From Isurus oxyrinchus (lineage: Eukaryota), in contig JANJGN010000075.1 of the NCBI GenBank assembly GCA_026770705.1, positions 1 through 64,000 on the forward strand: a DNA stretch of 64,000 bases. The letters are read 5' to 3'. This document shows positions 15,880 through 64,000 of this stretch, piece after piece. The position numbers were made by a program, and so were the translations under genes. Below the pieces are notes generated by a model that was not told the origin of the DNA, did not search any database, and was given only the letters and a program-made list of their open reading frames with translations. The stretch's first letter is position 1. Every line of letters begins with the position of its first letter.

Positions 15880-16645
15880 CGATTTAAAACTCTCTATAGT
15901 TAACCTCATGACATCCAAAAATAACAAAATAAACAATCAAAAACGGAACCGAAGGCCTCAACAGGAACATCAGTTGAGCAGCCCCTGCTGTTTTGTGCAG
16001 CGAATGTACACCAGAGTGTCAGTTGTCACGGAGAGATTGAGCTGTATAACAGTTGTTAATCATTCATTTGGGGTTCCTCCCATCTTGCTCCAACACTCCT
16101 TCATCCATAATCAGAAACGAAGGCTACAGCAATATCGGTGACGTTAATTAGCGGCGTCCCTGCTTCCCTCAGTTGAACAGAACTAAACTGAAACCCCTTC
16201 CCGCCTAATGGACTTTCTTCAATTCATATTGGGTTTTTTTTTCAATTTCGAACCGAAACTAATCGATCGGCGCAGGCTTGGAGGGCCGAAGGGCCTATTC
16301 CTGTGCTGTACTTTTCTTTGTTCTTTGAAATAAGGGGATGAGGCCTAAAAAAAATCAGTTAGCAGTTTAATCTCTTTCCCAACATTTTCCAGTTCTCTCA
16401 TTCAGCGCCCTCTCATTCGAACTCGTGGGTACACAGGATTGACAAGGTGCTATAATTACATAAATAAATGATTAACGACTGTAACACAACCCAATCTCTA
16501 CGTCACCATCCACACTCTCGTGTATATTCACTGCACAAAACAGCAGGGGGAGCTCATGTTAAGGCCCTCAGTTCTGTACTTGATTGTTTGTTTTGTTACT
16601 TTTGGAAGTCCTGAGGTTGACTCTAGAGTGTTTTAAATCGGCCAG
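15880..16645. repeat. Local inverted repeat (arms ~15880-16070 and ~16460-16645)
   Basis: cccctgctgttttgtgcag at ~15982 vs ctgcacaaaacagcagggg at ~16531; the arms align over ~190 bp. Confidence 0.85.
16262..16327 (+). mobile_element. Short CR1/HE1-type 3' tail insertion
   Basis: atcggcgcaggcttggagggccgaagggcctattcctgtgctgtac(ttctttg)n; absent from the paralogous position near 42810. Confidence 0.7.
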
Positions 16646-19600: not shown

Positions 19601-19711
19601 TGCGGGTTCTGATCCACAATTTTTTTTTTTGCGGTGGTGCTTGTAAAATTTCATGTGACATATTTAATGAGGCAAAACCCCGAAAAAAGCGTGCAAGTTT
19701 TTAATCTCAGA

Positions 19712-19945
19712 TATGGTGACCCTGATGCAATTGCCGATTGTTGGAAAAAACCCATCTGGTTCGCTAATGCCCTTCAGTGAAGGAAATCTGCCGCCCTTAC
19801 CCGGTCTGGCCTGCATGTGACTGCAGACCCACCGCAATGTTGTGAAAGGCCCTCCGAAAGGCTCTGGGAATCCATTCGGTTCAAAGACAATTAGGGATGG
19901 GCAACAAACTCTGGCCTGGCTCGCGGCGGCCACATCCCATGAGAC
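19712..19945 (+). mobile_element. HE1-like SINE (5'-truncated)
   Basis: aaaaacccatctggttcgctaatgcccttcagtgaaggaaatctgcc..ggtctggcctgcatgtgact..ttagggatgggcaa..cacatcccatga. Confidence 0.8.
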
Positions 19946-21080
19946 AGAAAATAAAAAGGTGGGAAATAGAATTTTTAAAAATGTGTATATTGTGGATGTT
20001 GGAGTTTGGTTTTGAGGCTTCTGAACCTCCAATTTTTTGGGATCGTACATGCAAAACGTTCAGTCATCCGACACATGTAATTGCAGTAAGTTAGGAAAAG
20101 GTTTACCAGCTGTTCAGGTCACTTATATCTATAAAGGCCGGCAGCGAGTTACAATCCAACGTGCGCTGTATCGTTACTGTTTTATGTCTGAATGGGGAGC
20201 GCACAATGAGATCTCCGGTTGCAGCTCTTGATCTTCGGGCAGATCTTCACATTTCGCCTCTCTCTCCCTCTCCTTTATCTCTTGCCTGATTTGTTCTTGT
20301 CTCGCTATCTAGATTTCTCCACCGCACAGAGACAAAGTCCGGGTTTCCTTTATTCTGGCTCTAATCCAGTTAACTCCACCCTCTCCCCAGTCATTGTTAT
20401 CCCCGTGTTTGAACGTAGTTTCCTGGGCCACCCAGACGTCTCACATGTGAGCAGCACAGCATTGCATCCTGTTTCTCACATCCATCTTTGTTTGAGTGTC
20501 TCTTCCCTCAAGGTCCCAAGTTCTCATATCCCGAGGGGCTGAGAAACTCTAATAGTATTTACACACACACGCAACTGCGACAGGCAGCCTCAACGTTTTG
20601 CTTTTTTGTGCGATTAAACATTTTATTTCCAAAACTTGATATAATTTTCTGCCCTCCATTACCTTGGCATTATTTTTCTGCACTCTGCACACTAATTCTT
20701 ACGTTTCCCACTATAGTAAAAAAACAGAAACGAATTCAAAGAGAAGCTTGATGTTAGGTACCAGAGTTGGGTTTTAAGAATTATTTGTTGGTTCGCACTC
20801 TGACAATCTTACACATGGAAGAGGAAATCAAAACCTACAAGGCTGGGAATACTCAGCAGATCAGGTAGCATCTGTATGTAGCAACTTGTATTTGCTCAGA
20901 TCTGGGAGATGTTAGAGAGTTATACATTTACAAACAATTATCCCTCCAATTTGTCTGCAAGTACAACAATGTTCATTTTATTCTGCACAGAACCCGTTTA
21001 TTCCTTAACTGCTGCAATTCCTGATGTACATTCACCGAACTGAGTTGTTAACTTTTTCCTCAATTAGCATAGGGTTAAAC

Positions 21081-21442
21081 CACAGTTATGTTAGGGAGGG
21101 AGTTCCAGTATATTGTCCGTTTGGTGTAGGTACACCCATGGCGCTGTTAGGGAGGGAGTTCCAGGATTTTGTCCTTGTGGTGCAGGTACACCCATGGCGC
21201 TGTTAGGGAGGGAGTTCCAGGATTTTGTCCCTGTGGTGTAGGTACACCCACGGCGCTGTTAGGGAGGGAGTTCCGGGATTTTGTCCGTGTGGTGTAGGTA
21301 CACCCACAGTGCTGTTAGGGAGGGAGTTCCGGGATTTTGTCCGTGTGGTGTAGGTACACCCACAGTGCTGTTAGGGAGGGAGTTCCGGGATTTTGTCTGT
21401 GTGGTGTAGGTACACCCACAGTGCTGTTAGGGAGGGAGTTCC
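21081..21442. repeat. 56-bp minisatellite, ~6.4 copies
   Basis: Unit tgttagggagggagttccRggattttgtccgtgtggtgtaggtacacccacagtgc starts at 21089, 21145, 21201, 21257, 21313, 21369, 21425. Confidence 0.95.
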
Positions 21443-22826
21443 ATGTGTGGAGGCGGGGCATTTGCACTTCGAAACTACCCGCCTTGCTGTATTACTGTAA
21501 TCCATTGGATTCCAGGGCAAGAGGTGCAAAACGGGGAAGGTCTGAATAAATCGTCTCTCCTGGTCCGGAACAGACACAGAGTGAATAAAGGCATACAAGA
21601 TGTAAAAAATTAATTCCGCCCAATAAAATTTGGGTGTTTCCAATGTTTTTTTTTGCCTGGGATAATGAGTCAGATGCACCAGCCTAGCGCCCGCCGCAAA
21701 TTTCAATCCCCGTTGCAGCGTTCACCCTCGATCAGCCCGTGCCCAGATGCAGCCACCCAGTGACTGAACCTCCTCGAGACTGGCAAATAGCAGAGCCTGC
21801 ACTGGCTATGAGGCGCCAGCAGATGGCAGCAATGGAACACTTTAATCTCAGGGAAGTTTCTCCAACCTGTGGAGAGTTAAACTTTAATTTTCCATCTCCC
21901 CAATTTAGGCATATACTGGGCGAATATGTGGAGATTATAACTGTGGTTTAAATTCAACATTTACAGTGGGGGTTGGGGGTGGGGGAGTTTGAACGTGTGG
22001 AGATTACATTTGCGTCTTCAAATAAAAATTACCAGTGTGTTGTGGGGTGAAGGTGTGGAATTATATTTGAGCCTTTAACAGCTCCAAAACTAATGGAGTT
22101 ATGGGTGACACGCTTTGTGTTAATTCTGGGGAGGGGAAGATTCACCTGTTTCACCAGAATCGACGCCGGGTTTTAGAAAGTGAGACTTTCGCTGACAATT
22201 CTGTTGGAGACATTGGATGAGGTTTAGAACTGGTGGGGCAAATAGATTGGGGTGGGGGAGGGGCTGCGTGGCGGGGGGTGGGGTGGGGGCTGGCGCTGCA
22301 AAAGTGCAGGTGGGGCATTTGTATTTCGACTTTACCCGTCTGGCTGTATCACTGTAACCCACGGGGTCACAGGACAAGAGCTGCAAATTGGGAAAGATCT
22401 GTATAAATCTTCTCCCCTTGTCTGGCATAGACACAAGGTGTGTTTGTTCCTGTGATAATGAATCGGCATGAGAAATGTTGTAAATTATCCTGCGAATATA
22501 TTCATTAGAAACCATTAGCAAGATGAAGTGTTTGGGTTTAAACATTGACAATGTCTTGCAGGGGATTTACAGAGCCCAGCAAAGTTATCCTGACACTGAC
22601 AGCAGTGTGTGAAACCTACAGCAAACGTCCACATTCAGCCTGGAATAATCCTCCAAACACCATCTCCAGACAACGTCTCCAATGGGGAAAGCAGCAGATC
22701 TCATGGGCAGTGCCTGCTACTAAAGAGGCGAATGCGCCAGTCGAGCGGCGACTGCAAATTTCAATTCCCTTTGCTGCATTCCCGCCCCATCAGCCTGTGC
22801 CCAAACCAAGCCAGCCAGTGATTGAA

Positions 22827-22865
22827 AGTTCTGTCGAAGGGTCATGAGGACTCGAAACGTCAACT
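22827..22865 (+). ncRNA. Minimal type I hammerhead ribozyme motif (variant core CUGUCGA)
   Basis: AGUU-CUGUCGA-A-GGGUC(AUGAG)GACUC-GAAACGUC-AACU: helix I AGUU/AACU, 5-bp helix II, palindromic ACGU helix III, GUC triplet. Confidence 0.65.
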
Positions 22866-22928
22866 CTTTTCTTCTCCGCCGATGCTGCCAGACCTGCTGA
22901 GTTTTTCCAGGTAATTCTGTTTTTGTTT
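22827..22928 (+). mobile_element. 102-bp Penelope-derived insertion containing a minimal hammerhead motif
   Basis: 11-bp TSD cagtgattgaa (22816-22826 / 22929-22939); absent from the other array units. Confidence 0.9.
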
Positions 22929-23095
22929 CAGTGATTGAACCTCTCTGAGACAGGTAAAGAGCAGTGCCTGCAGTAGCTGTGAGCCGCCAGCAGATGATAG
23001 TATTTGATCACTTACTAATCAGGAAAGTTGCTCCAACTTGTGGAGAGTTAAACTCTCACTTCCCATCTTCCCCATTATCAATTTACTCATTTACT

Positions 23096-23130
<35 letters not shown>

Positions 23131-26100
23131 GGGGGAGAAGGGGGAAGGTGAATTTGTGGAGATTATATTTGGGATATTAATAAAACATTTATTTGTGTGT
23201 GGGGGGGAGGGGCTAAGGTGTGGGGATAATATTTGGGGCTTCAACTGCTCCAAAAATAATAAGGGGAATCATTGAGACTCTGTGTGTTTATTGTGCATTT
23301 GGGAAGATTCACGGCTTTCACCAGAGTCAACGCCGCGGTTTGGAAACGGGGACTATCGCAGACAACTCTGCTGGAGACTTTGGGTGAGGTTGGAACTGGT
23401 GGGGTAAAATGTTTGGCAGGTGCCAACAGTGGAGGTGGGGCATTTGTATTTCGATTCTGCCCGTCTGGCTGCATCGCTGTAATCCACAGGTTCACAGGAC
23501 AGGAGGCGCAAAATGGGAAAGGTCTGTTTAAATGTTCTCTCCAGGTCAGGCACAGACACAGGGTGAATAAAGGCGGTAAAAATTAAATTCTGCCCCATTA
23601 AATCTGGGTGTTTCCAATGTTTTTTCCTGGGGTAAAGAACCAGTGTGAGAAATGGAGAAAATTATTCTGGGAATGTAGTCATTGGAAAGCTTTAACAAGA
23701 TGCAGTGTGTGTCAGTGGAGCAGGGGAGAGGGAGGAGGTGCGGGCGTGGTGGTTAAACAATTACAATTTCTTTCAAGGGATTTAGAGATCTCAGCCTAAC
23801 ACTGGGAGCAGTGTTTGTAATCTGCACCAACCGTCCACATTGCAGCCTGGAATAATCCCCCCAAACACCATCTCTAGACAATAACTCCAATGGGGAAAGA
23901 GGAGCAGAGCTCATGGGCAGTGTCCGCTGCTAAAGGTTCGAATGCAACAGGCGAGTGCCCGGTGCAAATTTCAATCTCCTTTGCAGCATTCACCCTCCAT
24001 CAGCCTGTGCCTAGATCCAGCCACCCAGTGACTGAACCTGTCTGAGACTGTCAAAGAGCAGCGCCTGCAGTAGCTGTGAGCCGCCAGCAGAGGATGGCAT
24101 TCGATCACTTTCATCCCAGGAAAGTTTCTCCAACCTGTGGAGAGTTAAATTTTCACTTTCTGTCTCCCTAATTTATTCATTTACTGTGAGAGGGTGAATG
24201 TGTGGAGCTTATAATTGTGGCTTAATAAAATATTTACTGGAGGCTTGAATGTGTGGAGATTGCATTTTAGGTTTATTAAAACAATTACGGTGGGGTGGAG
24301 GTGAATGTTTGGAGATTATATTTGCGTCTTCATAAAACATTTACTGGTGGGTGGGGTGAAGGTGTGGAATTATATTTGTGGCTTTTACAGCTCCTGAAGT
24401 AATAGAGATATCATCTAGAAACTGTGTGTTTATTGTGCGGTGGGGAAGATTCACATCTTTCACCAGAGTCAACGCTGGATTTTCGAAAGGAAGACTCTCG
24501 CTGAAAATTCCTTTAGAGATTATGGGTGAGGAATAGAACTGGAAGGGTGAATATGTTGAGGCGGGGTGGGCGGGAAGTGGAGGTGGGGCATTTGTATTTC
24601 GACTGGCTGTATCACTATAATCTGCAGGTTCACAGGGCCAGAGCTGCAAAATCAGAAAGGCCTGTATTATTCCTCTCTACTGGTCTGGCACAGACACAGG
24701 GTGAATAAAGGTGGTAAAATGTAAAAATTACATCCCGTTCCATTCAATGTGGTTGTTTCGACTGCTTGTTTCTGTGATAAGAAATGGGGTGAAAATTTGA
24801 GAAAAATTTCCTGGAAATGTATTCATCAGAAACTTTTACCAAGATGAAGTGTATGGGGTTAAACATTGACAATGTCTTTCTGAGGATTTACAGAGCACAG
24901 CAAAGTTATCCTGACACTGGGACCAGTGTCTGTAATCGGTACCAAATGGCCACATTCCAGCCTGGAAGAATCTCCCAAACACCATCTCCAGACAATATCT
25001 GCAATGGGGGAAGAAGAGCTGATCTCATGGGCAGTGTTCGCTGCTAAAGGGGCGAATGCAGCAGTCGATCGTCCGCTAGAAATTCCAATTCCCTTTGCAG
25101 CGTTCACACCCCATCAGCCTGTTCCCAGACGCAGCCAACCAATGACTGAACCTCTCTGAGATTGGCAAAGAGCAACGCCTGCAGTAGCTGTGCTCGGCCG
25201 GCAGATGGTGGCATTGGATCACTATCATCTCCAGAAAGTTTCTCCAACCTGTCGAGAGTTAAACTTTCACATTCCATCTCCCCAATTATCGGTTTCTTCA
25301 TCTAATGGGGGAGGATGCATGTGTGGAGATTATATTTGAGGTGTTAATACATCATTTACTTGGCGGGCGGGTGAATGTGTGGAGATTTTATTTGGGATTT
25401 TGATAAAAAAAAACATTTACTGGGCCCTGGATGAATGTGTGGAGATTATATTTGGGGATGTAACACCTCCAAAGATAATGGAGGTATCTTTGTGACTCTG
25501 TGTGTTTATTGTGCGTTGGGGAAGATTCACCTGCTTCACCAGAGTCGACGCTAGTTTTGCAAAGGGAGATTCTCATTGACAATTTCGTTAGCGGCTCTGG
25601 GTGAGGTTTAGAACTGGCGGGGTAAATGGGCGGGGGCAGGGTGTCAGGAGTTGGGGTGGGACATTTGTACTGCAACTCCGCCCGCCTGCCAGTATCACTG
25701 TAACCCGCAGTATGAAAGGGCAAGAGCTGTAAAATGGGAAAGGTCTGTTTAAATCTTCTATCCTTGTCCTGCACAGACACAGGGTGAATTAAGGTGATAA
25801 CAATGAAAAAAATTAAATTCCGCCCCATAAAATATGGGTGTTTCCAATGATTGTTGCTGGGATAATGAGTCGTTGCACCTGCCGCGCGCCCGCTGCAAAT
25901 TTCAATGCCCTTTACAGCGCTCACACCCCCATCAGCCTGTGTCCAGATCCAGCCACACAATGACTGAACCTCTCCGAGAATGGCAAAGAGCAACCCCTGC
26001 AGTAGCCATGAACCGCCAGCAGATGGTGGCATTGGATCACTTTCATCCCAGGAAAGTTTCTCCAACCTGTGGAGAATTAAATTTTCACTTTCCATCTCCC

Positions 26101-34358: not shown

Positions 34359-34620
34359 ATCCACAGGCAAAACCAAAATGAACAAACGACAGGCGTGTAT
34401 TTAATGGGAGAGCCGGCCACCATGACTGAAGCATATCGGGATAAAATTTTCCAATGATATAAAAAGACAATCAGCTGTCCTCCCTGCAAATTGACACATT
34501 GGGTCATTCCAGGTTACAGGCAGAAGAAGCCACGGCAATATCAGTGTCAGCATGGAATTTCCATTATGAGTTGGCTGCTAACATCGCCAGTGAGCAAATT
34601 TCTGTCACTGGCGATAGCAG
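34359..34620 (+). pseudogene. LRC/LILR-like Ig-domain pseudo-exon 1
   Basis: Acceptor aaacag|AT. Fragments DPQAKPK..TGVYLMGE..YQCQHGISIMSWLLTSPVSKFLSLAIA; 262 nt with frameshifts and stops; donor mutated (gcag|ttgact). Confidence 0.8.
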
Positions 34621-34919
34621 TTGACTGGCGAGGAACAGAAATTGTTAATATGTCTATTAAACGGTCTTGGCATATTCACAAATCCGTCTTTAATATCCTG
34701 CAAACAAATGAAATGTTCAGTATCAGGATAGAATGGCAAATCCAAATGGCCTTCATTTGATCGTTCAACTCTTGACAGAAGCTCTGAAAGAATGAGACTG
34801 TAATCACTAGCTGTAGATGAGCTGTCGCTACAGTGGCTGTGGTTGGCGGTAAGGAGTGAAGGGACAGTCAGCAGCTGAAGGGCTCTGTTACTGGGGGAAA
34901 TCTGGTGATCATTGGTGGA

Positions 34920-34927
34920 TGACGTCA
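34920..34927. promoter_or_regulatory. CRE palindrome TGACGTCA in intron after Ig exon
   Basis: The same palindrome lies at the same relative position (~300 nt after the exon) in the paralogous intron at 62056-62063. Confidence 0.35.
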
Positions 34928-35435
34928 CAGTCTATCCGGCGACTGGGTTAAGTCCAGTGTGACGTCGCAGGCTCACCCTGTGTCCTGTTTCAACCCCCAT
35001 TGACCAACTCCCCACACATGGGAGGTGGGGAATGCTGAACCTTTCCTTCATTATTACACATGAGACTTCAATTTCCACAAAGATGCAGGCATTATTTCAA
35101 AAGAGAGTCTCCTTAACTAATTTGGTAGCATTGACTGATTTCTCTTGATGTGATCTTACTTGGTACACGCATGATGCTGTGATACCTACAGTGCAACCAT
35201 CATTACAACTTGACTGTAAATCATTAGCTGTACAGTTTTTGCAGAGTCCAGAGGTCCTTCGATATTAAATGCCTTAGTCGCCTTTGTATTAGGACCACAG
35301 TCCTGGGTGCAATCACTTTCTCCCACACTGAGCGTTCGTTGTTGAGTTACCAAAATTTAACTTGTTACGACACATACGTTTCCTCTAGTCCTTATCTAAA
35401 CTTAATTCCTACCTATGTTTTTTTATCTACCGAAG

Positions 35436-35718
35436 AGTCATGAATAACGCCAGTCAAATCTCTTGATTAACCGACTGGGCTGTATGTAGTAAGAGAGAAG
35501 GTAAGCATTACTTGCACTATGACTGGAGATTATCGCTATTGAACCATTTCCCTATAGCGGAATGATGTTTACCTCTACGCCAGTAAAATCAGCACAGAAC
35601 GACACAGCGGCACCTACGCAGTTACAGGTGAAAACGCTGGAAGTCAGTATAATTGTGGATTTGGAACCAAGGCTGTTAGAGTCTAAACCCAGCAATGTTG
35701 TAACGGTCACAACTGCAG
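35436..35718 (+). pseudogene. LRC/LILR-like Ig-domain pseudo-exon 2
   Basis: gaag|AG ... SLD*PTGLYVVREKVSITCTMTGDY..GSQYNCGF / SKPSNVVTVTTA G|gtaagt; four stops plus a frameshift. Confidence 0.85.
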
Positions 35719-36314
35719 GTAAGTGGAAGAAAACTTGGATTTGTAGAAAGTTTCAGCAATCCTTTTGGTATTTTCAACAATTAATGTTCTTGTAACAAAA
35801 TGAATTATTTCTCATGGCGCCAGAGAAAACTATTGGGAGAGCCATTCACCTCAGAGTTAAACTCTTGGCATCACCTCTCTGACATTGGGCGCCTGAATTC
35901 ACCCGCTGAGATCCGTTTACCGTCAAGATTGCTACCGCAAACTATCAGAAACACGCAATGACTCTATGGTCAAATTAGTGTCCTTAATCCAAAAAATGAT
36001 CCAGTGGTATGAATGGTTTCAATTTACTCCTTCACCAGAACCTTCAACATAATCACAAGTTCGCACTCTGAAGAAAAAACAGAATATAAACCTGTCAATG
36101 TGTATAAACAGGCCCAGGAATACAAATGCAAATAGTGTCACCAGTCGAGCCTTCTGATTGGTTTCTGCTCACAGAATATGTCAGTGTTTGGGGAACGCTT
36201 TCCTCCTCAACTGAAAATTCAGCTTTACGTCTGATGGTCACAATTTATTTCGAGAAATCGGCACTCCATTTGCTTGATGCCTTCATGTTAGAATTTTATA
36301 ATTGGTCACCGAGT

Positions 36315-37074
36315 AAAACAAATACAGAATTACCTGGAAAAACTCAGCAGGTCTGGCAGCATCGGCGGAGAAGAAAAGAGTTGACGTTTCGAGTCCTCAT
36401 GACCCTTCGACAGAACTTGATTTCGAGTCCAAGAAAGAGTTGAAATATAAGCTGGTTTAAGGTGTGTGTGTGGGGGGCGGAGAGATAGAGAGAGAGAGAG
36501 GTGGTTGTGTAGACAAACAAGCAGTGATAGAAGCAGATCATCAAAAGATGTCAGTGACAATGGTACAAAAGAACACATAGGTATTAAAGTTAAAGTTGGT
36601 GATATTATCTAAACGAATGTGCTAATTAAGAATGGATGGTAGGGCACTCAAGGTACAGCTCTAGTGGGGGTGGGGGGAGCATAAAAGATTTTAAAATATT
36701 TAAAAATAATGGAAATAGGTGGGAAAAGAAAAATCTATGTAATTTATAGGGGAAAAAAAGGGAAAAAGGGGGAAACAGAAAGGGGGTGGGGATGGGGGAG
36801 GGAGCTCATGACCTAAAGTTGCTGAATTCAATATTCAGACCGGAAGGCTGTAAGGTGCCTAGTCGGAAGATGAGGTGTTGTTCCTCCAGTTTGCGTTGGG
36901 CTTCACTGGAACAATGCAGTAAGCCAAGGACAGACATGTGGGCAAGAGAGCAGGGTGGAGTGTTAAAATGGCAAGCGACAGGGAGGTTTGGGTCATTCTT
37001 GCGGACAGACCGCAGGTGTTCTGCAAAGTGGTCGCCCAGTTTACGTTTGGTCTCTCCAATGTAGAGGAGACCAC
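36315..37074 (-). mobile_element. 5'-truncated Penelope-like retroelement (GIY-YIG endonuclease C-terminus, 3' UTR, hammerhead at 36379-36417)
   Basis: Intact peptide LLYIGETKRKLGDHFAEHLRSVRKNDPNLPVACHFN...LGTLQPSGLNIEF; possible TSD aaaacaaat (36315-36323 / 37075-37083). Confidence 0.92.
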
Positions 37075-37139
37075 AAAACAAATTCCGTGTTCCCAAAGTC
37101 CTTCCATTCCAAAGTCTTTGTTTAGATTTCAATTTTACT

Positions 37140-37472
37140 AGTTGCAGTAATTCTCCAAGGCTCCTTAGACAGCACCTTCCAAAACCACGACTGCTACCAC
37201 CTAGAAGGACCAGGACAGAAGATACATGGGAATACCACCACATGGATGTTCCCCTCCAAGTTACTCACCATCCGCACCTGGAAATATATTGGTCATTCAT
37301 TCACTGCCGCTGGGTCAAATTCCTGGAACTCCCTCCCTATGTGTAGGTGTGCACCTACAGCACATTGATTGGAGCTGTTCAATAAGGCGGCTCACCAACA
37401 ACTTCTCAAGTGCAACTAAGGATGGGCAATAAATGCTGGCCAAGACAGCGAAGCCCACATTTCGTGAATGAA
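37140..37472 (+). mobile_element. CR1-clade LINE 3' end
   Basis: ctccttagacagcaccttccaaa..ctagaaggac..gggtcaaattcctggaactccctccc..gatgggcaataaatgctggc tail. Confidence 0.75.
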
Positions 37473-37773
37473 TTTAATATAGTAGAGTATAATTGCTTAT
37501 TTCGTGATCCTCCATTTTTGTGGTGGAATATGTATTGGAGTTAGACAGTGTCTGAACTCTGGCACATATAGTCTGTTATCATACTCATCTGTTGACTTAA
37601 TTTTAATTCAACTGAGACCATTTCGCGTCCAAACAATATGAAGTCTGAATGGCATTTGTCCCACAACAGTTCGGAATTCTGGGACTTTTAACAACGATGA
37701 GAATCATGAACTCACAAGCCACCTGCTGCCTATAACCAAAACCTCCAAACGGGGAAAAAGAGCATTCAGTGCC

Positions 37774-38672
37774 TGTTATGGCAACTGGATTTTAAATTGC
37801 AAACTGCCAAATCCCATGGTGAAACTTGAAACGACGACACAACGTTATGCAATTTGTATTTATTACAAGGTGCGGGCTTTGAAGTCATTTGAAAAAAAAA
37901 ACACCAACTCTTACAGGTTTCTTAAACATCTGAATTACACCGTTATCAAGAGAGAAATTATTTTTGAACACATACTTAGTTCTACAAATTACTACTAGGA
38001 TAACTTCTAAAACCCGTAATTAACCTGAGCCCCAGTCACACATCTGTTTAGGAAAGAGTGAGTACATTTTAAAAGACCAATGTAAAGAAACATACAGTAC
38101 TCTTAACAGTCGAATTCAAAGTGTTTTTTTCTTCTCAGGTTGAATTCCTTGTAGACAAAAGCTTGAGTCCCCAATACTGGAGTCTTTTCAGATCTGTGTT
38201 AGATTTTAGAATGTCTTCCCTTACACACAACCTTGTCTCCTTTATACATGTGCTCCTCTCTGAATGCAAATTCTCAATCTTTCGCTATGTCATGGGCCTT
38301 ACTTCTCTCAAGTAATAAAATTTATCACAGTCCCAATTTTACCCGAAATCTTTGGGAAAAATAAACACACTGCTTCCTAATTTCACATTCCTAGGTGAAA
38401 CATTTTACCGTCTCTTTTTAATCCAAGCTAGTTTCGTTTATTTTAAAATGCAAATGTTCCCTTTACGCCTATGTTTATCCACTTAACGTTTGAAACCTCG
38501 CTCATCTTCTCTTGCGTAAAAGCCTTCAGACCAGCGGCCTTTTATTCAATTAAGTTCCCCCTCCTACTCCCGCCCACGCCCCTCCCCGTCACACACACCA
38601 TAGACAGACAACTTTACTGCACTTTACAATAAATTTCAATAACCTTTTGAAAGTTATTATATCTTGCTGACA
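37774..38672. mobile_element. Candidate solo LTR
   Basis: TGTTA...TGACA termini; imperfect flanks gtgcc/atgcc; non-coding. Confidence 0.45.
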
Positions 38673-39166
38673 ATGCCCAGAAACTCTTGCTGCATTAGTA
38701 GTGCATACTACGAATTGAACTGAAAATCCCCACTGTTCATGCGAATTGTTCAGTCATTTCAATCAGGTTATGTCTTAACTAAATTAGTGAAATAAGAATT
38801 GCAAAATACTCAATCCCCTTCTACCCCTGATAATCCAGAGTGATTTTTTTTTAGCGCTAATGCCTGGGGTTTTGAAATGCATTCCCCTTTAATTTAATCG
38901 CTTTCGCACTGCTACTTGATTCTGCTAATGATTCATTGGAATGGCGAGCAAGCTGGAGTGCCGAATGGTCTACCCCTGCTCATATGTCTTATGTTCTTAT
39001 GTTCAATTGAAAGAAGAAAAACTGCACGTTGTCTCCAATCTCAACAGTCTCTGCAAACATTTCCCTTTATTATATCTCAATTCTTAGTGAGTTTCAATAG
39101 TTTCACTGCACAAGAAAAACTGAAAATCCATTTATGCTGTTTTTCATTCCAAGCATTTCACCACAG

Positions 39167-39433
39167 AACGGCTAACACGGCCCACTTGATGAGCCGACTG
39201 GGGTGTATTTAGAAGGCGAGACCATCGTCTCACAGTGAACAGAAAGAATCCCGCAAAAATCAACTTTTACACAGATTCTTAACTGTTTCCCTCTGAACAA
39301 ATCGTCACGAAGGACACCATTGGCTAATTCGGGTTGACAGATAGAAGCCAAGGAGGGCGGTACCAGTGCAAATAAAGAACCTCCGTCTAAAGGAGATGGT
39401 CGGAATCTGAGCCCAGTGACCCTATGAGAGCAG
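39167..39433 (+). pseudogene. LRC/LILR-like Ig-domain pseudo-exon 3
   Basis: ccacag|AA; LDEPTGVYLEGETI.. and ..DRSQGGRYQCK*..RRWSESEPSDPMRA G|gtgtgt; several stops and frameshifts. Confidence 0.85.
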
Positions 39434-40338
39434 GTGTGTGAAAGCACCATTGAATGTTAATTTGATTGTTCAATTGCTCCAGTCTTGACTCACAGAGAGG
39501 GGCTTTGTGATCACCTTTTATTTGTAACGAAACATCCTGACTACGTGGGATGACCCGTTTCCGTCAGAGTTACCAGTAATCACAGACTAAGAAATCCAAC
39601 AGAACACGCGAAGACCGCTCGGCCCGCCCGGGCTATGGCGCCTCTTTGAAAGAGTTAGACACGCTTTCCTTTTTCGCTCTTGGGAGCTGTGGGTAACTGG
39701 CAAGAGCAGAATTTAATTGCCATCTCTAATTCCTCTTGCGAAGTTAAATCAGCTCCACACCCAAGTCATTAACCACTATATCTGCAATTTTTCCCACACC
39801 AGTGATTATCCAATTCCTTGTGAAAGACACTGATTATTCTGATTCCTTCACACTGTCAGAGAGAACATTTCAATTCCCCACAAATTGCTGCGTCAGTATA
39901 ATTTTCCTGATCTCTCTTCTGGTGCCGTTGGCAAACAAATAAAAGCCATGTTATCCGATTACTCAAAATCTACCACCGAAAGCCATTGTTCCTTATTTAC
40001 TTTAAAAAATCTTTCATGATTTCGAATATCGCTATGAAATTTCCTCTTAAACTTCCCTGAACTGACGAGAAAATTTCCGGTTGGATTCATTCTCCATATA
40101 ACGGAAAGCCTCATGGCTGGAACCATCCCAGTGGGCGCCCTCCTAATTCATTGCAAAGCATTGTCATCCTTCCCAAGGTGTGGTGTGCAGAATTGGACAC
40201 AATAGTCCAACTGCTTGCTAAAAAGTGTTTAATGAAATTTTAGCATTTTTTGACTATATTCACCAAGTGAAAAGGTTAATATTTCCTTTCGGATTTTTCC
40301 TTTTACTCATGCTGCAATATTTTTCCTTTCTAATTCAG

Positions 40339-40629
40339 GTCTGCCAAAACCAAATATATCAGTGGATACTGACGTTGTTGTTAAGGGTGGTGAAGTCACG
40401 TTTAACTGCACAGGCCCCCGGGGTTTTCAGTTCATCAAATTGTACTTATACAAGCGAGGGAAAGAGAATTATTCAGATATCTAATATACCTGGTGGCCGG
40501 TACAAACCTTTACCATGGCGAAAGTGGGTTACGCTAAAGGAGGGATTTTCTTCTTCCTGTATGACATGGACGTAAATGAAAGGCTGATAACTTTGGCTCT
40601 GAGTGGCTCTGTGTATTTCAGTCCAAGAG
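40339..40629 (+). pseudogene. LRC/LILR-like Ig-domain pseudo-exon 4
   Basis: ttcag|GT, 291 nt, phase 1/1: GLPKPNISVDTDVVVKGGEVTFNCTGPRGFQFIKLYLYKRGKENYSDI*...GGIFFFLY.. G|gtgaat. One stop; second Cys replaced by Phe. Confidence 0.85.
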
Positions 40630-42028: not shown

Positions 42029-45000
42029 TAATGAATAATTCAATGAAGTAAATAACCAATGAGGAAATGTGACAAGGAGAACATGACGGAATCAATCATT
42101 CAATCTATGGAAGAGTGTGGAACATTGTTAATTAACCAATGGCTCAATAAAATAACGTATCAGTGACACATCACTTGGATGGCACTACCTTTAGCCGCAC
42201 TTAATGATTTGGTTTGTTGCATGATTGCAAGATGTGCTCCAATTCCGTTGTTATTTATTTGCCAGGAACAAAGGGGGCTGTTTTCTGTCATATGGTTTGT
42301 TTATTCTTCGTATTACGTTGTTGATGAATGACTGTCTCTTTAATAAAACCCTATACCAGATACATTCTCCTTAAAACAAACAGACATCGGATACATTTAA
42401 AAATATTTCTTAAAATATTCTGCTTATTACAATTTTCCTTGATTTTTTTTCAAAGTTGACAAGGCATTCGCTATCCAGTGCACCTGGAAATCTTTGATCA
42501 AACAAGTGCAGCAGAATCAAAGGGTATGTAAGTTACAGAATTATTTCCATAAAACTGCACTAAACAGAGAGAAAGAGTGAGTAAGGGAGATAGAGAGAGA
42601 GAGAGAGAGAGAGAAATAGAGGTGATCTGGTCAATCATTGAAGACTGCATTCATCTCAAACTGATGATTTGTTGGTGTTGTGCACCCACTCTGTCCTATT
42701 ATTATGCGTCCTAAAGCTCAAAGAGCAGGGCGCTGTGTGAAAGAATTTGAAAAGTGTAGGGGAAGGTTTAAATTGGTAACTGGTCCTTTTAAGCATAATC
42801 ACCTTATTTTTTCTAAATTTCGGCTCGGAATCCTAAAACCTGAGAGAAGTGAAAAAAAGACTTTCAGGCGGAATGGATTCAGTTCAGTGCTGTTTTGCTG
42901 AGGAGAGCAAGGATGCCCCAGCTTAATGTCACGATTATTGCTGTCGCCTCCATTTCTGATGATGGATGAGAGAGTCTTGGAGCAAGATGGGGGAGAACTC
43001 AGTTTAATGATTACCAGCTGTAATGCAACTCTAATTCTCCATCACAAAAAACACTACCGTGTTCACTTGCTGCACAAAACAACAGGGTGCGCTCATCTGA
43101 GGTTCCTGCTGAAGTCCTCTATTTTGATTTTATTTGCTATGTTTTTATTGTGGAAGTCATGAGGTTGATTCTAGAGTGTTTTAAATGGATGCCTGGAGAT
43201 GGAATTGAGGAACGATCCCCCACCACCCCACCCCCCCATCCTCCCCAACCCCCACCCCCAGATTGTGATTACCTGACCACAATGAATGACAAACTCCCAA
43301 CGACAAAAATATTTCAGGTTGTTCTTCCTGCTTTATAGGCTATTGTAGGCTATTAAACACGTGATCATTGTTTAACTTACAAAGGTTAACATTTTCTACT
43401 ATGCAGCAACCACATCCATATCTCACTACATGTTGTACAAAACTCAGAGCTGTTGCTTTAACTGTGGTGACCTCTTCACTGCCTCCCAGCCTCTGCTTCC
43501 TCTCTCATTCAATGCTTCCTGGTTTGAAGTTCTGAGCCTTGAAGGAAGGAAGGCAGCCACCTTTCTTTCCAACTCTCATCTCTCGAAGCAGCTGGGACAG
43601 GAGCATGGAGATAAGCATTTCGATAATGTTCTTTGGTGAGTCTTCAAGCATTATTGCACCGGCTGTACTGGGTTTCTGGTCTGTATGGTGGCTGAGTGGG
43701 TAACTAGCGCAGGGAGAATGGGACTGAGGGCAACAACTGGTTTGATGTGCATTGTATCAGGTTTCATTAGCGGAGCAGAAATTGACTGTGTTGAATTCAC
43801 CGTGAGGAACGGTGTAGGAGGTGAATTTGTTTTTACTTTTTGGGAGATGTGAGCGATTTAGATCGGAGCAGAGAACAGAAAGCGTGTCTGCTGCTGAGGG
43901 TTACCTCCTGGCCCCGTTTCCAGGCGTCGCTAAGTGGATGACTGCTGAGGATACTGTCAGCGTCTTGTTTCATAACTTCTGTAATCAGCCTGTTTGACTG
44001 GAAAATAGGGACCGAGCTCAGAAACCAAACAATGTCATACCACCGAAGGACAAGGCAGAGAGGCATTTGCCCTAGAACTGTGTTGAAGGCAAAGCTTCCT
44101 CTTTCGGTTAAGGGAGAGGACATGATGCAGAACCAAACACTAACGCTGCTGTTTGTGTCGGATTGTGTCGGTCACTAGTTCAGCCGGTTAACTGGAATGA
44201 TCCCCAGTGGCCCTGAATTGAATTGAATATAGGCCTATCCGTATTGGAGAAACGGTGATTGTTACCAGAAATGAAACTCTTCAATGAAGTTGGGAGACTA
44301 GAGAAATGTGTTTTTCTTTTCTTTCTGTTCTCCTCTCGTTTTAGGACAGTGAAGGTTAAGGAGGAACCTGACAGGTGTATTCATAAATCTATTGATATTT
44401 GATAAACTGCACAGGGAGATATTATATCATTTCGCAAACAGGTCTGTAATTATCAATGAATGAGTTAAAACTTCTGGGTGAAGGGCAATTAGCAGTGACA
44501 TTCTCATATTGAGGATTAAATTGATCAGGAATGGTCTAACTGTAGGAATGCGGAAAGCAGATTCGACCAGAACATTGAGAAAGTATTTAAACAGTAGTTT
44601 TTAATTACGGACATTAAGTTCGGATATGTGGGGGAATTTGGACAACTGTTTAAGAAAGCAAGAATAAGTAGGATGGACGAATGGCCTCCTTCTGTCATGT
44701 AATATGTCAAAATCCTCTTCTACGTTAAAGCAATATTTGAGGTTCAACATTCACCTTTCACTGTGTTACTGATCTCCAACAAGCGGACATACCGCCCCTA
44801 CCATTGGGCATAATTTCCCTGATTCACTTACAGGATCTCGGTCAATATTCACTCCGTTATCCTTTCTCTTTGCTGTTCCACTTGGATGCGCGCATGCGCA
44901 GTTCGAAGGTGAAGCTCTGCCTTGAACCCTTTCAGTGCCTGCACTGAAACATGAGCACATAATGCTGTGGGTTCCTGCAGGGCGGCCCACGTATATCGCC

Positions 45001-58838: not shown

Positions 58839-58871
58839 TGGCTTTTGCTGTTCAGCGGAGCGCATCTCAAT
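58839..58871 (+). CDS. 33-nt signal-peptide mini-exon of an Ig-like receptor gene
   Basis: ctctcatttcag|TG GCT TTT GCT GTT CAG CGG AGC GCA TCT CAA T|gtaagt; phase 1/1, xAFAVQRSASQ, in frame with the exon at 61453. Confidence 0.65.
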
Positions 58872-60047
58872 GTAAGTATCAACATTTCTCTCTGAAGTCC
58901 TGACATTGAATAATTAATGCCTTTACTGTTCAATAAATAAGATTGATGTAATGGAAATGAGTTTGATTGCTCTAACCAATGGTGTTGTAACATTGATAAC
59001 TACAAAGCAACATGCATTCTAGCAGTTGCCAGTGCGATAACGCAATGGAAAAATGTGCTTTTTGACACCTTATCCCATTCCATTTCTGTGCCGAGGATGC
59101 CGAGGCAGCAATCCAGTTTTCCACATGGTCACAGATCAATGCTCCAATGAATGTTAAAATGATTTCAAAATGTATTTGAATGCCCCATTCAAAGTCCCCA
59201 CATTTGCTATAAGGACAGAGGAGGCCATTGTATCCTTTATGTCTGTTCTGTCTTTCTATGCCAGCGTGGCTGGACTATTGGTTCTCTCCTTTGATTAGTT
59301 TTGGTTACATTACCCTTAACTACATAAAGTAAACAGGAAACTATCAATTTACCTGGGCTCTGGAGCTATTCTGCATTAGTATGTTCAAATATTTCCTCCA
59401 CTCAGTGCTTTCTGTCAAAACCATCATTGGAAGGTGTTGTTTCACTTTGGCATTTATTTCTGCTAGTTCTGCACAAGGAACTATTGGACACAGAATCGCT
59501 CTATCCCGTCCAGGAAACAGCTAATTTACCTGAAACACTTCTATTTCGTCAATTTATCTTCTACGCTCAGCATTGTACATGTAGACTGCTGTCATAATTC
59601 ACACCAAGTAGTCTGGAACTTTTTCTCTAATTCTTCAGAGGTCTAATCTCACAAATGTCGCCCCTGTCCACTCAGCCAAGCCTGCGCCACCATCGAGAAT
59701 TTTTCAATGGATCAAATTGAGCAATTGTCGCTTTCCATCTCGAATCTTGGCTCACTCAGTTAAAATACAAGCGTTATTCATTTCTATGCACTCTCTTTTC
59801 CTACTAGCTTTGACTAAGACCTTGTTCAGTAAAGTCGCACCCCGTTCTCCTGGTGGCAACTTTTCCCTGACACACCGGATCTGTTTCTGTCGCACTGCAG
59901 TACTTATTCTGAGCGTTCAATACCCTTTAATGGTCCCTTGTCACCTTCCCCTCCATCCAACACCATTATTCACACTTTATTTTGTATAATCCGTAGTTGT
60001 CCACCCAACACCAATTCCCTCTGACAGACTCACAGCAACACCAGTTT

Positions 60048-60800
60048 GCTTTCATTTATATAGCGGCTTTAATGGAGTATCACGGCCCAAGGCGCTTCAC
60101 GTGAACCAGCATGAAACGATATTAGACACCATGTAACGGACGGAGATTTTAGGGCCGGAGGCCAAAATCTATGCCGAACAAGCAGGTATGAAGGTGTATC
60201 CTAAAGTAAGGCAGGGAAAGGTGACACAGTGCAGCGAGGAAAGCCCAAAGCTTCGGGCCCCCAGGCAGCTGAATACGCCAATTGTGGAGCAATGGAAATC
60301 TCAAGCGGCCGGAACAAGTGGAGCGCAGAGATGACGGAGTGCAGGGGTGTTTGGAGGAGATTACACAGAGAGGCTTCGAGGGCCATGGGGGGGATTTCAC
60401 AACAAGAATGAGCTTATTGTGAAATCTAGGCTTCCCTTCATGGGCTGGCGACGTGGGAAAATTTACTTCTCTTTGAACCGGTGTCATGTAACAATGGAGC
60501 TTATTGCGAATGGAAAGAGCGGACAGCTGATGTTTAGTTAATTTCAAGTTTACACCCGGTGGAATATGTGGGTTTCGTAAATGTGCAGGTGGAATAGACA
60601 TGGCTGCAGGTGACAAGAGCAGATCAAAGGACGCGGAGGTGGAATCAGGTGATGCCACTGAGGCAGATATGAGTTCATAGTGATGGAGCGTGCTAGGTCA
60701 ACTCAGGGTCAAAGGTGGCACTAAAGTTGTAAAGAGGCTCTCTCAAAGCCTGATTTTGTCCAGGGAGCGGGATGAAGTCGATGGCTTGGAATGGGGCCAC
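60048..60800 (-). mobile_element. L2-like LINE 3' fragment
   Basis: catttatatagcggctttaa..ccaaggcgcttcac is the reverse of a typical L2 3' terminus; degenerate coding upstream. Confidence 0.6.
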
Positions 60801-61452
60801 TGGGGTGAGGGCTAAGTGTCTGGGGGGTCTAATCCCACGGCCTGCTTCCCATCAGCATTTTTGGTTTAGCAACACAACACCTGCTGCATCGCCTCAGAGG
60901 CACTCAAAATCAGATTCTCAAAGGCAATGAGGGATGGGCAACAATTGTCAGCCTGGCCAAATGCAATCACTTCAGAATGATTGAATAATTCTTCTGTTTC
61001 ACAAGGGCAACTCCGTTGTTCGAATTCAAATCCACATGGTTTAAAGAAGAATTTCATTATCTTTAGTCACATTTTCTCCTCGGCCAAATTGACTATAAAT
61101 ATTGAAAGCTCATCAAACAAACTCTTCCATTCACTTCTATGCCAGGGTAACATTTCTGATCAAACGTCCAAATTGAAAGACAGCTCCAACTGATTTTGTT
61201 TCTTTGGCGTGACTATTTGATTTCCAATATCTCAAAAGTAGCTGCTTGCAACGCCCGGAGTTACTTAAACCCATCATGTTACTTCAAATATCACACTATT
61301 TCTCAGTTTACAAATCACTAAACATCATTTTGTTCCAACTCATTTCCGATGGAATCATCTTCCTTCAGCACGAACTGAGTCACTAAATTTCCACTGTTAC
61401 TGAAACCCTGGAGATCCATTCCTAACAGACCTTTATGTTATTTCTTCCATAG

Positions 61453-61749
61453 ATGCACGAAGAAATCCAAAGATATCACTTGACCAACCGACTGGTGTTT
61501 ACTTAGAAACAGAGGATGTCACCATTACGTGCACTGTGCAGGCAGTGATGATAAACTATTATAATAAAGCCTTCTGCATTTACAAGGATAATCAAGTACT
61601 CAGCCTTTCTCCTGTTTCCAAACAGGATGAACGTGCAATGTTCTCGATTCCTGCTTTTAACCATGGAGGGTGGTATCAATGTGGATATTGTTCTGGGATT
61701 TCACAGTACTTTTCCCCAATGAGCACAGCTGTGATGGTTACTGTAGCAG
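61453..61749 (+). CDS. Intact C2-type Ig-domain exon, LRC/LILR/IGSF1-like receptor
   Basis: ccatag|AT ... GCA G|gtgagt; 297 nt, phase 1/1, no stops: ARRNPKISLDQPTGVYLETEDVTITCTVQAVMINYYNKAFCIYKDNQVLSLSPVSKQDERAMFSIPAFNHGGWYQCGYCSGISQYFSPMSTAVMVTVA. Confidence 0.9.
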
Positions 61750-63364
61750 GTGAGTGACAAGGAACAGAGATTGTAAACAATGATTTTTTTCAAAGTCATT
61801 GCGACTTCCAAAACTCCATGTGCTAATTGCTTTCAGAAAATAGAACTGTAGATAATAGAAGTGAGGGGTAAGATGGAATGACCTTGGATTTCATTGCTTA
61901 GTTCCTGTCATATTCCATGAAAGCCAGAGGCCTGAGTGAGTCAGACCTGACTGTATTGCTGAGGTAACGAGAGGAGTTAAGGCAGCATGAGGAGCGTGTG
62001 AATGTACAAAATCAGCTGAAGTATTCTGGCATTGCGGAAATGGACCATTGTTGCGTGACGTCACAGTGTAACTACAAATCGAGTTGGGTCGCTTATCATG
62101 GCAAAGTGACAGCATTGAGGCAGCGCTACACTGTCGGAGTGACATTTATATACTCTAGGATTTGATCATTGTAATGCACACAGGCACTCCCCAGCAACGC
62201 CCCCCGGCCATGCATTCCAACCCCTCCCCGCCCTCTGCGTTCCCGGTGTAACTAATGAGGGAGTGCTGCATTGCCGGAGGTAAATTTATATCTCTAGGAC
62301 TTGAGCCCCATAATCCAGCACGACATTCCTCCAGCGACAGTAACTCCAGCATTGAAGTTCCCTGACACAGTTAGAGTAAAATGTGAGAGCTGCAATTTAG
62401 CAGGACCGTGCTTAAGATGAGACAGTGACAAACCTCTGGTGCATCGAATCTCAGGTGCCTGGACGTGGTCTCACTTGCCTTCACCTCACAGAACATTAAT
62501 CGGAAGTCCTGTCCTCTCCTGTCTCCTGTGTGGCAACATGAATCTATCAGAACACATCACTCAACATGTGCACGCAATTCGGTCATTGTCTCATTATTCT
62601 TTATATGAAAAGATAATCAACCTCTGACCTCTTATCAAATCGTCACAAAGGACAACATTAAAACATTCATAGTGCCCGATACAGAAAAAGGTGGGGGGTA
62701 CCGTTGTAAATATACAGCCCCCGTGTTGGGAAGGGAGTTGGAATTCCAGTTCAGTCAATCTGTGAATTTCACGAAAGCAGGTGAATGAGGAGGAACAGCG
62801 AATACTAATATGTCTATTCAATCAACCCTGGTAATTTAATAAGAAGCCAGTTTTCACATTCTCTAACACTCAGCGGGACATTATATTCATCTCTTGTCTA
62901 ATCCTGATCCGATACATTGACTCATCACTGCCAGTGTCACCATTAATCACAGAATGAGAAAATTCAACAGCACAGACCTGAGCACTCGGCCTCTCAACTA
63001 TTTTTTTCATTTGTTCACGGTTTGTGGCTAGAAATGAAAAGGCAGAGCTCGATTGCATCTTTTTAGTTGCCCTTTTAAAGCTGTTATATTCGCTCCGAAG
63101 TATATGTCTAAAACATCTGACAAATTATCCCTTAGCAATGTTTATCCAGTTCCGTTTGAAGGTTTGTGTTGAATTTAATATTAGCACGAGTTCCCAGAAT
63201 AGCTGCCCCTTTGAAGGTGGTGATGAGCCTACTCCTTGACCATCTGCAATCCTTCTGGTGCATTGAGGAACGCACGCACACGAAACGCCCGGGCACGCGC
63301 ACACTTGCACAAAGGCAGACAAACACGCGCACACGCACTCACAAAAACTCTCCAACACAGACTC

Positions 63365-63365
63365 T

Positions 63366-63404
<39 letters not shown>
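63365..63404. repeat. (CA)n microsatellite
   Basis: Near-perfect CA run. Confidence 0.95.
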
Positions 63405-63407
<3 letters not shown>

Positions 63408-63715
63408 ATGATTACACGCATACACACAGGAACATATAGCAATACACAGGTAATTAGAAAGGCTAAAAAGCAGCTGAAATTGTGTCGCAATATTGAAACA
63501 AGAATCTGCTTCTGAAATTGCGCTTTGAAATGTATTATTTATTTGGCCATTTCAATCAGCGCGCCGACTCACACTTGATCGAAAATTTTCCGTTGATGTA
63601 AACATCATCATTCGGCATGGTTAAGTTTACTTTATCGCACCAACAATTATTGTATAGTACTCTCGTTCGATTCATTAAAATAGTGTTGCCAATTTTATTT
63701 TAATTTTTATCACTG

Positions 63716-63991
63716 AGCCGCCAAGAAAACCACCGATAACACTTAATCAATCGAAAGGGCTATGTATAATAAAAAAGACTTTAACCATGACGTGCAATGT
63801 GACTGGCGATGATAGGGAGAAACCCGTCAATGTTTACAAAGATGAAGAATTCCTGGCAAATGCCAATACTGGGACTTTGCCGGCTGCTGGTAGAAGTAGC
63901 AAAGGGCGAGACCGATGTGCATACGGAATTTCCATTGGTGGTCGGCATCTGACATCCCCAAAGAGCAAGGCTGTGACCGTGACTACCACAG
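63716..63991 (+). CDS. Second Ig-domain exon (open frame, non-canonical acceptor)
   Basis: 276 nt: EPPRKPPITLNQSKGLCIIKKTLTMTCNVTGDDREKPVNVYKDEEF..GRDRCAYGISIGGRHLTSPKSKAVTVTTT G|gtgagt. The expected acceptor reads cactg| instead of ag|. Confidence 0.75.
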
Positions 63992-64000
63992 GTGAGTGAC

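Follow-up and report, generated by a model that had tools for sequence, protein, structure and literature searches.

An eight-exon receptor gene on contig C75

We analyzed positions 1 to 64,000 of contig JANJGN010000075.1 (C75) of the shark Isurus oxyrinchus (assembly GCA_026770705.1). This 64,000-nucleotide stretch (the window, G000:C75:1-64000) holds the first part of a gene for a predicted membrane receptor with immunoglobulin (Ig) domains; the remainder lies further along C75 and is given in the same numbering. The gene has eight exons on the forward strand and runs through C75 base 78021, with an open reading frame of 1416 nt (471 codons for amino acids, a single stop) and AG/GT at all internal splice sites. 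The predicted protein comprises a split leader, four Ig domains (D1–D4), an Arg-bearing transmembrane (TM) segment and a tail free of tyrosine (none in the last 35 residues), and it carries five N-glycosylation motifs.

The first leader exon, S1, contains the ATG (43605..43635; 31 coding nt, phase 1, GTGAGT donor) and lies 15 kb upstream of the second, within the window, in which an earlier reading of the DNA alone (the sequence-only reading) had not identified it. S1 was the top match to the first 10 residues of P0003 from Carcharodon carcharias (score 37; runner-up 21), the orthologue of this gene's product, which has the same leader. The second leader exon, S2, is a 33-nt mini-exon at exactly the proposed position (58839..58871, phase 1/1), preceded by a polypyrimidine tract and AG, followed by GTAAGT, and spliced to D1. 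Exons of 33 nt and of the same kind stand 5' of D1 in three paralogues (C75:164434, 184800 and 1611251). Because S2 occurs in spliced contigs of four of four sequencing runs, in the P0003 leader and, in like form, in three paralogues, it is beyond chance, and we ruled out a fortuitous mini-exon on these three grounds.

The D1 exon (61453..61749, 297 nt) is open throughout and encodes a C2-type domain with Ile at the usual Trp position; it matches Pfam Ig_2 with 30.3 bits (cut-off 27). The sequence-only reading had called it intact and noted its two extra cysteines, which are residues 41 and 79. Its nearest named proteins come from C. carcharias (91%, the identity of D1 to P0003) and Cetorhinus maximus (85%). 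The intron that follows begins at 61750 and fills the window to its end (61750..64000). Beyond the window lie the exons for D2 (C75:66104-66397), D3 (C75:67688-67981) and D4 (C75:68616-68912). Extension 3', which had been proposed as a search for a charged membrane segment, brought out a TM exon with Arg at its outer and Glu at its inner end (C75:76646-76756), followed by a last coding exon for the tyrosine-free tail (C75:77963-78021). The joining of D4 to the TM and tail exons is based on splice sites and on P0003 and P0004; read-supported joints extend to D4.

We placed contigs from four runs (X1–X4), all of a single sample from a single study, on C75:58501-68500. No run is on record as RNA, and their RNA nature was taken from joints that skip introns. 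Spliced transcripts join the exons that had been proposed to form one gene: S2 is joined to D1 in all four runs, with the S1 letters present as a loose end before it in each, D1 is joined to D2 in two of the four and D2 to D3 in three, and D4 letters follow D3 in all four. C75 holds four copies of the gene and C48 a fifth; over 10 kb the five are 99.5-99.8% alike, and all are mutually distinct (2-10 mismatches per 3.3 kb). Two observations count against reading the contigs as products of this very copy: at two D2 sites that distinguish it, the contigs covering them (X2, X3) bear the letters of other copies, and two runs show the letter of the C48 copy in D1. Because the contig variants fit other copies better, we assign transcription to the gene type rather than to this copy: the gene type (this gene or its near-identical copies) is transcribed and spliced from the leader to D4. 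This copy could itself be silent, or a duplicate created in assembly, with expression confined to its twins, as its close likeness to them and the D2 letters would have it. We think this fairly unlikely, given that all five copies differ, making more versions than one diploid locus can have, that the downstream genes differ between copies, that the frame of this copy is intact, and that the reads may come from another individual; it would in any case bear on this copy alone and leave the family unaffected.

Two decayed Ig exons, also on the forward strand, lie in the window downstream of D1. The first (62492..62780, 289 nt) has a frameshift and a stop. The second (63716..63991) is a duplicate of the D2 exon that is 18 nt shorter than its twin and has lost the acceptor AG, reading CTG where the twin reads CAG; its region is 78% identical to the D2 region across 902 nt. 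Contigs of two of the four runs (X2, X3) join D1 directly to C75:66104 and bypass both exons. The frameshift and stop, the lost acceptor and the skipping joints rule both out as coding domains, and the proposal that phase-1 Ig exons follow the mini-exon is sound for D1 and fails for the next two such exons in the window. Further upstream, the window holds a decayed paralogue (34380-40622) with at least four Ig exons that contain stops; its last exon recurs beside each of the five gene copies.

The two extra cysteines of D1 occur together in 1 of 793 aligned domains (the first alone in nine, the second alone in four). The pair is kept in P0001, P0003 and P0004 and is missing from the nearest D1 paralogues; it is peculiar to this gene and its orthologues. 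In the usual Ig strand register, which we take to apply here, the two residues lie on the same face, diagonal to each other rather than directly opposite, and an additional Cys41-Cys79 disulfide is possible.

A paired family in a multi-megabase cluster

A genome search with D1 gave 142 exon matches among the 150 scored of 329 candidates (C75, C48, C24, C129, C215 and C197), and the D4 search gave 122 among the 150 scored of 392; 16 of 21 TM candidates are TM exons of this type. Over the first 254 kb of C75 the gene is interleaved, on both strands, with pseudogenes, genes of the type bearing ITIMs (immunoreceptor tyrosine-based inhibitory motifs), and three-Ig genes whose TM segment carries His, replaced by Arg in a copy at 427 kb. 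C48 (4.9 Mb), sampled to the contig end, carries further Ig families lacking the C-strand Trp (Trp-less) and mosaics of SRCR and Ig domains. We took 22 samples from C48, at its two ends and over 3.62-4.89 Mb, and all genes recognized in them belong to Ig families; the Pfam scan did not extend to the non-Ig candidates of these samples. In an observation on the extent of the cluster, C48:1.9-4.9 Mb prolongs it, with SRCR-Ig mosaics for example at 2.97-3.03 Mb and 3.49-3.53 Mb, and proteins resembling these mosaic genes were retrieved from teleosts.

Relatives occur in galeomorph sharks, squalomorph sharks and rays under inconsistent automatic names (FCRL5, KIR3DL1, LILRA6, IGSF1-like, PECAM-like). 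An identity with PECAM, perlecan or CEACAM, as such names suggest, was ruled out by the Trp-less domains, the fold ranks and the TM segment. The 21 elasmobranch proteins retrieved include nine with an uncharged TM segment and ITIM-like motifs, three with an Arg-bearing TM segment and a short tail, one fused model with both, four with an uncharged TM segment and no motif, and four without a TM segment. Sharks and rays thus have both ITIM-tailed and Arg-TM relatives, and the family is therefore a paired one; activating-type and ITIM siblings are paired in one cluster that spans megabases.

Divergence within the cluster is uneven. Two adjacent paralogues have D1 exons that are 93.5% alike and introns that are 98.4-99.3% alike, and one D3-type pair shows a dN of 0.24 against a dS of 0.09. 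D2 pairs show no consistent excess of dN, and dN is below dS for D1, D3 and D4 of this gene against its paralogues. Gene conversion could be an alternative cause of D1 exons diverging more than the introns around them. The sequence-only reading had called the cluster polymorphic, which is borne out as copy-number expansion and divergence of paralogues and not as allelic variation.

Placement between the LRC and Fc receptor lineages

The C75 gene is intact and encodes a predicted type I membrane protein of 471 residues, and we consider it likely that this protein is the activating partner in a family of paired receptors of the type found in the leukocyte receptor complex (LRC). The placement starts from the predicted fold. 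With the D1 model (pLDDT 83.6) as query, the top 15 Foldseek rows were all LRC receptors, led by LILRB1, LILRB4, CHIR-AB1, PirB, NKp46 and LAIR1. The VIA Z values were 13.4 for CHIR-AB1 (rmsd 2.3, 91 aligned), 13.4 for PirB, 12.3 for LILRB4 and 12.1 for KIR3DL1, and on the FcR side 11.3 for FCRLA, 10.8 for FcgRI and 10.4 for FCRL5. The top 10 rows for a three-domain model were PirB, LILR and KIR structures, and the model of the orthologue was concordant. The structure prediction that had been suggested for D1 thus puts its fold nearest the LRC receptors, about 2 Z units above FcR and FCRL.

Sequence characters point the same way. The C-strand Trp is present in none of 16 family domains, which have Ile, Phe, Leu or Val, and in none of 21 tetrapod LRC domains, all with Leu, versus 15 of 15 LITR-like or CD22-like domains. 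A D4-type profile retrieved PirB (3e-32) and LILRB1 (8e-25) ahead of FCRL5 (8e-17). We computed two quick trees of 91-95 columns: the first with 133 rows (at most five domains per protein of 202 cut, plus the four of this gene), the second, after removal of long branches and of three columns, with 82 (at most three per protein). Database names were used for 20 proteins; the labels of P0097, P0023, P0146, P0163, P0115, P0158, P0148, P0153 and P0067 were assigned from sequence, as were those of the LITR-like reference set, which consists of teleost proteins. The Trp-less domains, tetrapod LRC domains among them, fall on one side (SH-aLRT 98, and 95 with those columns dropped), and a grouping of the family with the LITR-like receptors is rejected (p-AU 0.03). 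Fold, Trp-less C strand and domain trees thus favor the LRC side over LITR-like receptors. In all, the splice joints, exon counts, fold ranks, p-AU value and divergence back the sequence-only reading of a spliced, LRC-like, multigene and fast-diverging immune-receptor cluster.

Several results pull away from an LRC placement. For a comparison of Ig folds, a Z gap of about 2 is small, and the value for PECAM-1 is 11.6. The whole orthologue scores FCRL5 (3e-22) above PirB (2e-17), as does a D1-D3-type profile (4e-19 versus 4e-13), these FCRL5 and PirB scores being sums over many domains. In the trees, which were built without mammalian FCRL, XFL or CHIR, D1-D3 form a separate elasmobranch clade (97) outside the tetrapod LRC clade and group weakly (82) with amphibian and turtle receptors of no assigned family, not with LILR or IGSF1. 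Our searches did not link any LRC framework gene to the cluster, which sits on short contigs.

The framework genes that we located lie on other contigs: CNOT3 on C30, and TTYH1 at the very start of both C39 and C56. Samples of 130 kb near CNOT3 and of 180 kb near TTYH1 held no family exon, and none of 98 candidate exons around the C24 family locus and CNOT3 rose above the Pfam cut-off. The genome search gave no match to PRPF31 or RPS9 profiles, and we did not find the 3' exons of TTYH1. SAC3_GANP matches at two loci (C12 and C14) were read as other members of that family and not as LENG8. A homologue search with TTYH1 returned one protein, on a different scaffold from the family in that species. 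As to the contigs themselves, C39 (1-78031) and C56 (1-52884) each open with a truncated TTYH1 that long satellite arrays flank, and C56 has two SRCR-Ig-type loci at 2.7 and 3.0 Mb, the latter decayed, that are distant relatives, with a GPCR-like frame at 2.7-3.0 Mb.

The separate D1-D3 clade, its weak grouping with P0064 and P0074, the mixed FCRL5 and PirB scores, the failure to find LRC synteny and a variant TM motif described below would all suit a branch of its own within the FcR/LRC superfamily, either the sister group of the LRC or one that predates the parting of FcR and LRC, with the same activating mechanism. We regard such a branch as unlikely, since the Trp-less domains, tetrapod LRC included, share one supported side and both the D4 type and the fold are closest to LILR, PIR and CHIR. 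Its corollary, kinship with Trp-less amphibian, turtle and teleost receptors and not with the LRC by descent of the locus, seems to us equally unlikely.

LRC genes typically have a second leader exon of about 36 nt, a rule that we did not find confirmed in the literature searched. The corresponding exon of FcR and FCRL genes has 21 bp (PMC2413239; here and below, citations refer to the accessible parts of each paper), in agreement with the figure in the sequence-only reading, and S2 has 33 nt; length is a weak family marker. The classical activating FcR TM motif, (M/L)Fxx(D/N)TxL (PMC2413239), is missing from this gene's TM segment. The family might instead be the shark equivalent of FCRL or LITR and signal as Xenopus XFL does: FCRL5 is the top whole-sequence match, most automatic annotations read 'Fc receptor-like protein 5', and the same TM type occurs in Xenopus FcR-like receptors (PMC2413239). 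The C strand without Trp, the rejected LITR-like grouping (p-AU 0.03), the 33-nt rather than 21-nt mini-exon (PMC2413239) and the fold ranks make this very improbable. The LRC-type reading is the one we prefer: the family probably acts like LRC receptors and belongs to their broad lineage.

Among known systems, mammalian LILRA/PIR-A, which are activating LRC receptors of four to six Ig domains, and their partners LILRB/PIR-B share with the shark genes four C2-type Trp-less Ig domains, the TM Arg, a short tail, ITIM siblings and clustering with pseudogenes, and they are the top fold and D4-profile matches. They differ in that identity is about 20-26%, the Asn of the shark gene is not at -3 from Arg, it has an additional short exon for the tail, its domains are not orthologous to LILR D1-D4, and its siblings have 3 to 10 Ig domains. 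Chicken CHIRs likewise form a large paired cluster that grew by block duplication and comprises 103 loci, 41 of them pseudogenes (PMC1458963), and CHIR-AB1 is a joint-best structural match of the shark D1 (Z 13.4), although CHIRs have one or two Ig domains rather than four; IgY is bound by ggFcR and by some CHIRs (PMC6557307). XFL, FCRL and LITR are also multi-Ig paired receptors with a two-exon leader, and the NxxR-type TM segment of XFL couples to FcR-gamma (PMC2413239); they differ in the 21-bp second leader exon of FcR/FCRL, the Trp-containing domains of the LITR-like set and, for XFL, a single exon for TM1 and tail where the shark tail has its own. LRC group B (IGSF1, A1BG, OSCAR, TARM1) resembles the shark genes in its many tandem Trp-less domains, and the D4-type profile retrieved IGSF1 and OSCAR, whereas IGSF1 domains fall within the tetrapod LRC fork (92), apart from D1-D4 of this gene.

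Membrane segment, proposed mechanism and significance

The TM sequence (NSTPIRLG ... GIE) has Arg at its outer end and an acidic residue at its inner end, both features of FcR-gamma-coupled LRC TM segments (PMC6557307). Arg-bearing TM segments couple LILRA2, PIR-A, NCR1, GPVI, OSCAR, Fc-alpha-R and Xenopus XFL to FcR-gamma (PMC2413239, PMC6557307). Two facts tell against using this segment to support LRC membership. It reads T-P-I-R (L-S-I-R in paralogues) with Asn five residues before Arg and so lacks the exact NxxR. Segments of the NxxR type are, moreover, shared by FcR-like and SLAM-like receptors of Xenopus (PMC2413239, PMC6557307), and the TM segment does not decide the family. NxxR marks a TM subtype and not the whole family, since the charged residue is Lys in activating KIRs and an Arg at a shifted position in bifunctional CHIRs (PMC6557307, PMC1458963).

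A candidate adaptor is encoded in the same genome. We found two zeta-family genes with Cys and Asp in the TM segment, one on C18 (CD247-like) and one on C1723/C1648 (contigs of 114-120 kb; TM exon at L108:1483-1578 on C1723 and at L109 on C1648), which we take to be FcR-gamma-like from its C-terminal motif. A complex prediction of the receptor TM exon with two FcR-gamma-like TM exons scored 0.03 and was not used as evidence.

In the mechanism that we propose, the receptor would be expressed on leukocytes and bind its ligand through D1-D2. The TM Arg would pair with the Asp of an FcR-gamma-like dimer, whose immunoreceptor tyrosine-based activation motif would recruit Syk-family kinases, and ITIM siblings with similar ectodomains would oppose activation through SHP phosphatases. 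The identity of the ligand is the least secure step. MHC class I, or else a microbial molecule that imitates the ligand of an inhibitory sibling, has close to an even chance; antibody Fc is a somewhat unlikely candidate, and another ligand, such as collagen or other self proteins, is less probable still.

To our knowledge, the MHC class I reader on shark cytotoxic cells and the binder of shark IgM, IgW and IgNAR Fc are open questions, and the family supplies concrete, expressible candidates for both. A 2014 survey, in its accessible text, found sharks to have no homologues of LRC-type receptors, FcRL or FcR-gamma and held that these arose at the base of bony fish (PMC4016189). A study from 2019 treated fish counterparts as uncertain and did not settle, even for bony fish, how the LRC originated (PMC6557307). 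Chicken and pig clusters have been described (PMC1458963, PMC6182393), and the accessible parts of PMC4536121 and PMC5290243 contain nothing on sharks. The literature searched, with subscription journals and supplements outside the search, does not describe a family of this kind from cartilaginous fish, in keeping with the 2014 survey as accessible (PMC4016189) and with the sequence-only reading, which had called it poorly characterized there. Database annotations already give some members LRC names; as a paired receptor family of elasmobranchs it is apparently undescribed. The presence in sharks and rays of a large, spliced, diversifying paired family, together with an adaptor, moves the logic of these receptors back to the early history of jawed vertebrates. 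Sharks and rays may even have a true LRC in which paired Ig receptors, SRCR-Ig mosaics and fast-evolving, FcR-gamma-coupled Arg/His-TM genes fill several megabases (C75 in full and C48 for the most part), a reading that we hold only tentatively and rate somewhat below an even chance. If it is true, the last ancestor shared by all jawed vertebrates would already have had the LRC and its adaptor, and the cluster would house the missing shark NK receptors that read MHC class I, or antibody Fc receptors.

Three relatives of the gene deserve mention in their own right. The three-Ig His/Arg-TM subfamily occupies C75:164434-176266, with copies from 184800, at 414271-426927 and at 1004290-1014198. Short contigs matching its D3 start have word depths of 15,000-25,000 in X1-X3, and none occurs in X4, against 4-20 for this gene; word depth is a poor measure, and the values suggest a very abundant, tissue-restricted member. 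An outlying family gene lies at C24:46357923-46421791, close to where this contig of 47.5 Mb ends; its Ig exons number about eight, its TM segment is uncharged, and it has counterparts on C129 and C215. Finally, P0121 of Heterodontus francisci has three Ig domains and an Arg-bearing TM segment preceded by a YT motif, nearer to the description of tetrapod LRC TM segments than that of this gene; for its domains there are matches of about 40% among the exons of C75, C197 and C48.

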